This document shows positions 6,849 to 8,187 of a DNA stretch of 64,000 nt, piece after piece; position 1 is the first letter of the stretch; every line of letters starts with the position of its first letter. The stretch lies in sequence record PQ438393.1, one strand, 5' to 3'. Under the pieces are notes generated by a model, which saw nothing but the letters and a program-made list of their open reading frames with translations, made no database searches and was not told the origin of the DNA. A program made the translations under genes and the position numbers. This DNA is from Escherichia phage vB_Eco_J-01.

Positions 6849-7060
6849 TGAAAAAACTTCTTGTCGGTTTACTTTTAGTAATCAGTTCTTATTCTTATGC
6901 TGGTCAAATAACTTTAATTAATTCTGGAGAACAAGTTTCTGGAAGTACAAAATACTGTTTTTACTCTAACGGTATGTACGACAAGGTTATAGAGGTTTCT
7001 GCAAGTCGTCAGTGTCCCTACACACGAACATTCTCAACAGAGAGTTCAGATGATGAATAG
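6849..7060 (+). CDS. small secreted protein (signal peptide)
   Basis: ORF track 6797..7060; ATG 6849 after AAGGAG; MKKLLVGLLLVISSYSYA signal-like N-terminus; two Cys. Confidence 0.5.
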
Positions 7061-7068
7061 GAGGTAAT

Positions 7069-8187
7069 ATTAGCGGTTACATTTTAATCCAACCGGAAGA
7101 CCTGCACAAATATGTTGACGAGAACACAATTCTTGCAATAGACTACGATCAAGTGGCGTTCCAAGCGTCTTCAGCTTTAGAACAAAGAAAAATCCACGCT
7201 GTACACAAGGCTTCCGGTAATGTAAAAGAGTTTGAAACAAGAACAGATTTTTGGGGTAAATCTTCAAAAAATATTGGAGGATGGTTAGGAGCACTTAACG
7301 CGCAACGCGAAGCTGCTGGTAAGAAGTTGTTCTCTAGAGAAGATTTTGAAATAAAAGATGTTCAAATAGTCCCAGATAATATTTCTTTTACGTTTCAAGC
7401 TGCAAAGACAAAAATAACCCAGATGATGGATCACCTAAAACTTCAAAAGTATTGCGGTGTCATCGGGGTAGGAAAAACCTTCCGGCATTCTTTCAAAATG
7501 CCAAAAGAATATAAATCAGAACGATCAGATTTAAGACCAATCCATTTATCAGATACTAAAGATTATCTAGTTGAAAAACATAACGGTGACGTTGTTACTG
7601 GTATTGAGGCAGATGATGCTTTAGAAATCTATGGATATGCAGGGTATAAAGCCTACAAGGAAACTGGTAAGTTTTCTCATATTGTAGCATCTATCGACAA
7701 AGATAGCTTACATACACCAAGTTTACTCTTTAACTTTTATAAAGAGGATGGTGTTTATAAAAATCCTTGTATTATTCTGATTGATGAATCTATCGGTGAT
7801 ATCTGGATCGTAGAAAAAGGTAAGAAAAAAGAAATTAAGGGTTGGGGTAGTTACTGGTTAGCTTATCAAATGCTAATGGGCGATAAGACAGATAGTATTC
7901 GACCTTACCAAGATTTCGATGTTAAGTTTGGAGATATTACTTGCTTTAATCTTATTTCCAAATGTAAAACACAGGCTGAACTTTTTCAGACAGTTAAAGA
8001 TCAGTATTATGAATGGTTCCCAGATGGCGTTAAATTTACTTCTTGGGATGGTGAAGAAGTAGAAATGACAACTGATGAATGGATAGAGACAATTTTTCAG
8101 TTGGTATATATGAAACGTTGGGCGAATGATGAAACAACTTTTGAAAGTATGCTACAAGCATATATTTCAGAGCAGGAGGAACATTGA
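7069..8187 (+). CDS. rnh: RNase H / FEN-family 5'-3' exonuclease
   Basis: GIEADDALE motif; conserved N-terminal block ILAIDYDQVAFQASSA lies upstream of the listed GTG 7153 with no in-frame ATG/GTG/TTG, so ATT 7069 after GGAGG is proposed as start. Confidence 0.6.
   Translation: MSGYILIQPEDLHKYVDENTILAIDYDQVAFQASSALEQRKIHAVHKASGNVKEFETRTDFWGKSSKNIGGWLGALNAQREAAGKKLFSREDFEIKDVQIVPDNISFTFQAAKTKITQMMDHLKLQKYCGVIGVGKTFRHSFKMPKEYKSERSDLRPIHLSDTKDYLVEKHNGDVVTGIEADDALEIYGYAGYKAYKETGKFSHIVASIDKDSLHTPSLLFNFYKEDGVYKNPCIILIDESIGDIWIVEKGKKKEIKGWGSYWLAYQMLMGDKTDSIRPYQDFDVKFGDITCFNLISKCKTQAELFQTVKDQYYEWFPDGVKFTSWDGEEVEMTTDEWIETIFQLVYMKRWANDETTFESMLQAYISEQEEH

Follow-up and report, generated by a model that had tools for sequence, protein, structure and literature searches.

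An AUU codon as the probable translation start of a flap-endonuclease-type exonuclease gene in a phi92-like Escherichia phage

The locus studied here raises the question of where translation of a nuclease gene begins when no ordinary start codon precedes its conserved N-terminus. The gene lies in a stretch of 64,000 nucleotides (nt) from Escherichia phage vB_Eco_J-01 (PQ438393.1), a phi92-like myovirus (Justusliebigvirus, Stephanstirmvirinae). This whole stretch is called the window below, and coordinates refer to it unless another locus (L followed by a number) is named. A list of open reading frames (ORFs) made from the letters opens the gene at GTG 7153 (7153..8187, 344 amino acids (aa)), the first canonical in-frame start. 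The original prediction had placed a conserved block of an RNase H-like protein upstream of this codon, and proposed either initiation at ATT or ATA, or a frameshift or sequence error. Our comparisons of sequences suggest that translation very probably starts at ATT 7069 and not at the annotated GTG 7153.

Upstream, the nuclease frame is closed by two in-frame stops (TGA 7051-53 and TGA 7054-56). The 32 codons that follow them at 7057-7152 (AAT GGA GGT AAT ATT AGC GGT TAC ATT TTA ATC CAA CCG GAA GAC CTG CAC AAA TAT GTT GAC GAG AAC ACA ATT CTT GCA ATA GAC TAC GAT CAA) include no ATG, GTG or TTG, as had been read at first. The GGAGG core of a Shine-Dalgarno (SD) sequence, with a full match of AGGAGGT, is also present where it was reported, 4 nt before ATT 7069, and this ATT is the sole near-cognate codon at a workable distance from it; of the non-canonical starts first considered, ATT is the one supported. 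No SD-like motif was found in the 18 nt upstream of GTG 7153. The predicted RNA fold of 7025-7115, around the SD and the start, is unexceptional (-15.4 kcal/mol, z -0.86) and lends no support to a structural switch. If ATT 7069 is used, the predicted N-terminus is (f)MSGYILIQPEDLHK or SGYILIQPEDLHK.

The distance between the SD and ATT 7069 agrees with the habit of this phage. Of the 37 GGAGG sites on the window's + strand, 20 precede, by 3-10 nt, the canonical start of an ORF no shorter than 40 aa; the modal spacer is 4 nt (11 of these 20 pairs). GGAGG 7060 is unique in the 64 kb, both strands considered, as the site where a near-cognate codon begins a long ORF and is flanked on neither side by a canonical start. 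The placement of the SD before ATT 7069 is more than chance.

The stretch between the ATT and the GTG behaves as coding sequence. Over 26 codons (Gly3 to Gln28), compared with 18 distinct Stephanstirmvirinae-like relatives, the ratio of nonsynonymous to synonymous differences (pN/pS) is 0.06-0.30 (pN 0.05-0.18; pS 0.58-1.14, near saturation). Asp25 and Asp27, in the block IDYDQ, do not vary among 37 homologues, the most distant at 24% identity, which include 5'-3' exonucleases typed by Pfam. To judge from these comparisons, the 28 codons before GTG 7153 are coding and under purifying selection, and the claim that a conserved N-terminal block is encoded upstream of the GTG is borne out by the position of the two aspartate codons. 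In an AlphaFold2 model of the 372-aa protein (pLDDT 95.7, pTM 0.89), residues 21-25 form a beta strand (beta1) and residues 26-37 a helix, with Asp25 at the C-terminal end of beta1. A start at Val29, the codon annotated as GTG 7153, would hence lose both.

The homologous start in related phages, which the original prediction had listed among its checks, points the same way. DNA of relatives was collected from GenBank phages, IMG/VR, JGI and ENA metagenomes and Logan assemblies, giving 27 distinct start contexts with 47-100% aa identity. The codon homologous to 7069 is ATT in 12 of them, ATC in ten, ATA in three, CTG in one (L044) and TTG in one (L054), while ATG and GTG occur in none; one of the 12 ATT codons, that of L056, was assigned from its homology with L057, the script having taken the adjoining AAC. 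All 27 contexts carry an SD 3-5 nt before this codon, in the form AGGAGG or GGAGG, or GGGGG in the phAPEC8 group and GAGGG in one case. In four lineages (L011/L017, L030, L032 and L036) an in-frame TAA stands directly before the ATC, so that the frame opens exactly at the ATC. Moreover, L045 has ATT at the start position where L044 has CTG, although both contigs encode an identical called protein; since CTG is a near-cognate start and not an isoleucine codon, this difference fits a start codon rather than a conserved isoleucine.

The first canonical in-frame codon lies 8-195 codons beyond the near-cognate codon among the 27 contexts, and in many relatives it is 35 or 142-143 codons away. None of the 18 Stephanstirmvirinae-like relatives compared has GTG at the place of GTG 7153, where they read ATT, ATA, ATC or GTT; the deeper lineage L057 does have it. 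In the outgroup, starts fall within 1-3 codons of the position of ATT 7069 (POP15 and L055 with ATG, Mydo with GTG, rV5 and K54lambda1.1.1 with TTG), and the remote family members PAK_P2, Felixounavirus and phPA-Intesti start with ATG. A neighbour-joining tree nests the near-cognate clade among lineages with canonical starts, and Fitch parsimony on the tree including outgroups gives 12 start-codon changes, several of them among ATT, ATC and ATA. A near-cognate codon and its SD have been kept at the same position throughout this deep clade.

A separate observation concerns three of the relatives. At about 690-700 in L020, L040 and L041 (63% identity), an out-of-frame ATG abuts the SD (AGGAGGATGTTATT) and opens an overlapping ORF of 17 codons. 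It is too near the SD for an obvious start, and it could compete with the ATT.

The gene product is predicted from sequence and fold to be a 372-residue 5'-3' exonuclease of the flap endonuclease (FEN) type. The protein has no Pfam match at threshold and falls short of the gathering threshold of PF02739 (5_3_exonuc_N); the cut-off of 34.3 bits is missed by its homologues P0039 (26.6) and P0040 (25.1) and reached only by the remote members P0067 and P0068. By sequence the nuclease is a divergent subfamily, captured by PHROG 107. A phmmer search against PDB gave no match, and the family profile reached only the 5' nuclease of Taq polymerase at an E value of about 0.5. Aligned with hhalign, the family profile matched T5 D15 (E 3e-5), with YKSER, IEADD, SIDKD and GDKTD of the window protein opposite YKGNR, VEADD, STDGD and GDLGDN of T5. 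For T4 RNase H the alignment fell short of significance (E 0.096) and did not cover the N-terminal motif. Residues E180, D182, D183, D210, D212, D272 and D275 are invariant and align with the T5 motifs GVEADD, STDGD and GDLGDN. The model shows a PIN-like alpha/beta nuclease core and a helical DNA-binding (H3TH) region, and a conserved carboxylate cluster that includes D25 by motif and position.

In the FEN family an aspartate at the end of beta1 (D26 in T5, D19 in T4) is a metal ligand. The two-metal carboxylates of T5 FEN are D26, D68, E128, D130, D153, D155, D201 and D204. Asp25 would accordingly be the first metal-binding aspartate of the active site, equivalent to T5 D26 and T4 D19. The N-terminal motif resembles 'LMIVDGTNLGFR' of T5 FEN and 'CLIDFSQIALSTA' of T4 RNase H (1TFR sequence; ...CLIDFSQIAL). 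The likeness to T4 RNase H noted originally is real as a string, but it is a visual similarity that the profile alignments do not recover, because the family carries an insertion after helix 1. Similarly, the label 'RNase H-like' holds at the level of the family (FEN or 5'-3' exonuclease, with homology of fold), but the residue-level match to the T4 N-terminus stays unaligned.

Compared with the well-known members of the family, the window protein is only 12-22% identical to T5 D15 and T4 RNase H (and also to ExoIX and the 5' nuclease domain of Pol I), and about 80-100 residues longer, with insertions after helix 1 (the beta-hairpin 39-55 and what follows). The annotated coding sequence (CDS) of T5 D15 begins with ATG, unlike that of the window nuclease. 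Closer orthologues are found in Vequintavirinae (rV5, Mydo and POP15), where they are annotated as 'putative exodeoxyribonuclease'; these are 38-42% identical over nearly the full length and have their N-terminus at the same position behind a strong SD, but unlike the window nuclease they possess canonical starts (TTG in rV5, GTG in Mydo and ATG in POP15) and full-length annotations.

How an AUU could serve as a start may be pictured as follows. The strong SD AGGAGGT, with up to seven pairs with the anti-SD, would dock the 30S subunit and put the ATT into the P site at 4 nt, where the initiator fMet-tRNA would pair with A and U of AUU and leave the third base mismatched. Proofreading by IF3 would then make initiation inefficient and keep the nuclease at a low, IF3-sensitive level, as in infC and pcnB, and ribosomes ending the small ORF upstream, whose TAG lies over the SD, may contribute to a degree by re-initiating. 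AUA, AUC, AUU and CUG make up a class of their own in E. coli reporters, with 1-2% of the activity of AUG, and an AUC-initiated reporter carried an N-terminal Met by mass spectrometry (bioRxiv 10.1101/063800). In another SD context AUU and UUG starts were six to eight times below AUG and GUG (PMC3592434). In both infC (IF3) and pcnB (poly(A) polymerase I), AUU serves to hold expression down or to regulate it (bioRxiv 10.1101/063800; PMC3592434), and selection for low expression has been argued for pcnB (cited in PMC3592434). In the phage clade, T, C and A are repeatedly swapped at the third base and G appears in no lineage. ATG is one mutation away from ATT, ATC and ATA and yet is never fixed, which suggests that selection favours a weak or conditional start of a DNA nuclease that may be toxic. 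We infer insertion of fMet at the ATT, a low expression and a benefit of low expression under selection.

Several points weigh against a start at ATT 7069. Variation among ATT, ATC and ATA is also what a conserved isoleucine would show; this reading is ruled out, in the sequences compared, only by the in-frame stops upstream and by the variants with CTG and TTG. L046, L047 and L056 have an in-frame ATG, devoid of an SD, 8-9 codons past the near-cognate codon and before the invariant Asp, and in these three lineages translation could start at that ATG. A spacer of 4 nt is among the shorter ones seen in E. coli (PMC3592434), though typical in this phage. A literature search found no proteomic or ribosome-profiling data for the gene, the virion proteomics of the rV5 paper covering structural proteins only. 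The equivalence of D25 to the T5 and T4 ligands would rest on position, motif and invariance and not on a residue-level superposition. As a rationale, selection for low or conditional nuclease expression would be the most economical reading.

The alternative that survives best accepts ATT 7069 but supposes that it is reached mainly by termination and reinitiation from the small ORF, and not by de novo binding of the 30S subunit directed by the SD. We consider this possible though doubtful. In each of the lineages examined, the stop of the preceding gene either overlaps the SD or is at most about 18 nt from the near-cognate codon. Reporters with closely spaced cistrons, among them the infC arrangement (stop, 3 nt, AUU), owed about equal shares of initiation to reinitiation and to de novo events (PMC3592434). 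However, genes are generally packed tightly in these genomes, which makes proximity unspecific; the upstream genes are unconserved across the clade, and a strictly conserved strong SD at fixed spacing argues for SD pairing. Nor would coupling escape control by IF3, as overexpression of this factor also lowers the efficiency of re-initiation (PMC2268962). Translational coupling is a possible contributor to initiation at the ATT rather than a true rival.

A further extension of the ATT start would make it a conserved switch, in which initiation at AUH or CUG, gated by IF3 and responsive to ppGpp and the nutrient state, ties synthesis of the nuclease to the translation state of the host, possibly aided by an initiator-like tRNA(CAU) of the phage. 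Starts other than AUG show a particular sensitivity to ppGpp and to nutrient limitation (PMC5499595). We hold such a switch to be rather unlikely; if true, it would be the first natural example of AUC and AUA, besides AUU, as bacterial starts kept by selection over a long evolution.

The tRNA genes of these phages were surveyed as well, and none was found in the 64-kb window. The complete relative PHB05 (NC_052652.1) has 16 tRNA genes at 51.3-54.2 kb (L064:1277-4158), none of them annotated in the RefSeq record. One, a tRNA(CAU) at L064:3858-3936, has an acceptor stem like that of an initiator (CGCGGGA, mismatched at C1xC72) and is devoid of the three G:C pairs of the anticodon stem, the pairs that IF3 inspects. 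Copies at least 93% identical are present in Justusliebigvirus and Phapecoctavirus, and relatives of 75-83% identity in many other phage groups. A phage tRNA initiating at AUH was considered and rejected: tRNA-Ile(GAU) of PHB05 has the shape of an ordinary elongator, and the initiator-like tRNA has the anticodon CAU and its like is widespread. No specific link between the PHB05 tRNAs and the ATT start was found.

Much less probable is that the public annotation is right, and that a 344-aa protein starts at GTG 7153 behind an untranslated leader or decayed remnant at 7057-7152. This GTG has in its favour that it is the first canonical start and that it has been chosen repeatedly, in phi92 gp085 and in the records of four Justusliebigvirus phages (Nernie, JLBYU50, cardinal and PHB05), all with 344 aa. 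However, the codon lacks an SD and is replaced by an isoleucine codon or GTT in the 18 relatives, where the next canonical codon, often 35-143 codons on and up to 195, would delete much of the nuclease domain. The supposed leader, moreover, evolves as coding sequence and encodes beta1 and two invariant aspartates. The annotations themselves are scattered: in vB_Eco_PATM the start of the nuclease is placed even later than GTG 7153, Phapecoctavirus ESCO5 and phAPEC8_ev052 annotate only 229 aa, and all seven GenBank annotations inspected, together with phi92 gp085, give truncated products of 229-344 aa. When the clusters from a collection of about 15 billion protein sequences are included, the products are either truncated (229-353 aa) or a fusion with a recoded TAG; no entry of this collection is exactly the 372-aa sequence beginning with Met. 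Gene callers scatter over downstream starts in the relatives (MEKR..., MAFQ..., MIDYDQ... and MHKYVD...).

In vB_Eco_PATM a minus-strand ORF of 74 aa (7070-7294 of the window; L003:771-995) is labelled 'putative exonuclease' on blastx evidence. It is a blastx-driven mis-call over the unannotated N-terminal region of the nuclease.

Less probable again is a fusion of the nuclease to the small ORF by a -1 frameshift or by readthrough of a stop codon. The small ORF does end within the SD, the nuclease frame is at -1 to it, and the database protein P0002 (444 aa) joins the two. The frame relation is nevertheless variable, being different in the window, the same with one stop between in L010 and L042, and the same with two stops in L011, L030, L032 and L036, and deeper relatives have unrelated genes upstream, for instance an HNH endonuclease or a methyltransferase. 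A slippery heptamer is absent, and a shift would be confined to the single codon between TGA 7054-56 and TAG 7058-60; the signal-peptide-like N-terminus of the small ORF would also be implausible on a replication nuclease. As evidence for a fusion P0002 was rejected, for its DNA (L042:1501-2835, Logan contig SRR30397360_28145) holds an in-frame TAG which the gene caller read as Gln, and the fusion is an artefact; having no canonical start to use, the caller seems to have opted for a recoded genetic code. Both alternatives of the original prediction, the frameshift and the sequence error, are disfavoured by this variable relation, the artefactual fusion and the many identical loci. An error of sequencing or assembly, or a pseudogene without its former start codon, is the simplest default for a missing start but hardly credible here, given the identical 141-nt segment in ten loci (nine besides the window), the 55 GenBank phage records at least 99% identical over 6800-8300, the recurrence of the feature in relatives from isolates and from IMG/VR, JGI, ENA and Logan assemblies, the strong purifying selection across the whole gene and the high-confidence model.

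With ATT 7069 preferred as the start, the features of the locus are collected in Table 1. The frame of the small ORF differs from that of the nuclease in the window, while in L010, L011 and L042 it is the same; in deeper relatives other genes stand there. Further upstream lies an RdgC homologue. The downstream gene has the same geometry as the nuclease (GGAGG, 4 nt, then TTG) and probably starts at TTG 8184. Its start is disputed between annotations, with JLBYU50 and PHB05 using TTG 8184 and Nernie and cardinal a position some 42 nt later (about 8226).

Table 1. Features of the nuclease locus in the 64,000-nt window
Feature	Coordinates	Strand	Evidence or remark
Small ORF, 70 aa, signal-peptide-like N-terminus, PHROG 4641, function unknown	6848..7060	+	ATG 6848, TAG 7058-60
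Two in-frame stops, TGA TGA, closing the nuclease frame upstream	7051..7056	+	sequence
Shine-Dalgarno AGGAGGT, core GGAGG 7060-64	7059..7065	+	sequence; modal spacing; SD in all 27 relatives
ATT, proposed initiation codon decoded as fMet	7069..7071	+	SD distance; homologous codons; preceding TAA in four relatives; outgroup starts
Full CDS, predicted flap-endonuclease-like 5'-3' exonuclease, 372 codons and TGA stop 8185-87	7069..8187	+	
N-terminal coding stretch omitted by public annotations, residues 2-28, including strand beta1 (21-25)	7072..7152	+	pN/pS against 18 relatives; predicted model
GAC TAC GAT, Asp25-Tyr26-Asp27	7141..7149	+	invariance in 37 homologues; end of beta1
GTG, start of public annotations, read here as internal Val29	7153..7155	+	no SD; unconserved
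DnaQ/RNase_H_2-like 'DNA polymerase exonuclease subunit' gene	8184..9146	+	TTG overlaps nuclease stop (TTGA); GGAGG 4 nt upstream

Two further sites may be mentioned. Positions 6777-6806, between rdgC and the small ORF, resemble a promoter (TTGACT, 18 nt, TAATAT, with a TG upstream) from which the small ORF, the nuclease and the genes that follow could be transcribed; the likeness is one to the consensus alone, and such sites are no commoner in the region than in shuffled sequences. A scan of the window for other non-canonical starts gave none that was convincing. At GGAGG 21527 a CTG (21537) follows after 5 nt, and the first canonical codon, GTG 21546, comes three codons on and 14 nt from the SD, in an ORF of 58 aa; the CTG may be a second near-cognate start, or the GTG may simply have a long spacer.

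For users of these genomes the position of the start matters, as truncations from the equivalent of the GTG or later lack the invariant and probably catalytic Asp25, and the shortest products miss about 140 N-terminal residues. Cloning of the annotated ORF would probably yield an inactive enzyme. The clade may also serve as a benchmark for the prediction of start sites with non-canonical codons. Start codons are undiscussed in the rV5 paper, and our literature searches gave no report of this ATT start.

The closest known systems are infC and pcnB, the only confirmed starts besides AUG, GUG or UUG named for E. coli (bioRxiv 10.1101/063800). The phage gene resembles both in having an AUU behind a functional SD, no canonical alternative and, as we propose, a low or regulated expression, and it resembles infC further in starting a few nt after the stop of the preceding cistron. 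There are also differences: infC and pcnB are described as AUU, whereas the phage clade drifts among AUU, AUC, AUA and CUG, and the product of infC is the proofreader itself, which gives that gene an autoregulation, whereas the phage gene encodes a replication or recombination nuclease that has no such logic. Membership in the near-cognate class is indicated by the SD at a functional distance, which has the modal spacing of the window and is kept in the 27 relatives, by the retention of a non-canonical codon (ATT, ATC, ATA or CTG) in 26 of the 27 orthologue contexts, and by the position of Asp25, Asp27 and beta1 before the first canonical codon able to start the protein. These comparisons support a known kind of initiation, that of the near-cognate AUU class, of which the phage FEN would be a new and unusually well-conserved instance rather than a new mechanism. 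A whole phage clade that keeps a strong SD before AUU, AUC, AUA or CUG provides unusually strong comparative support for this rare class of starts.

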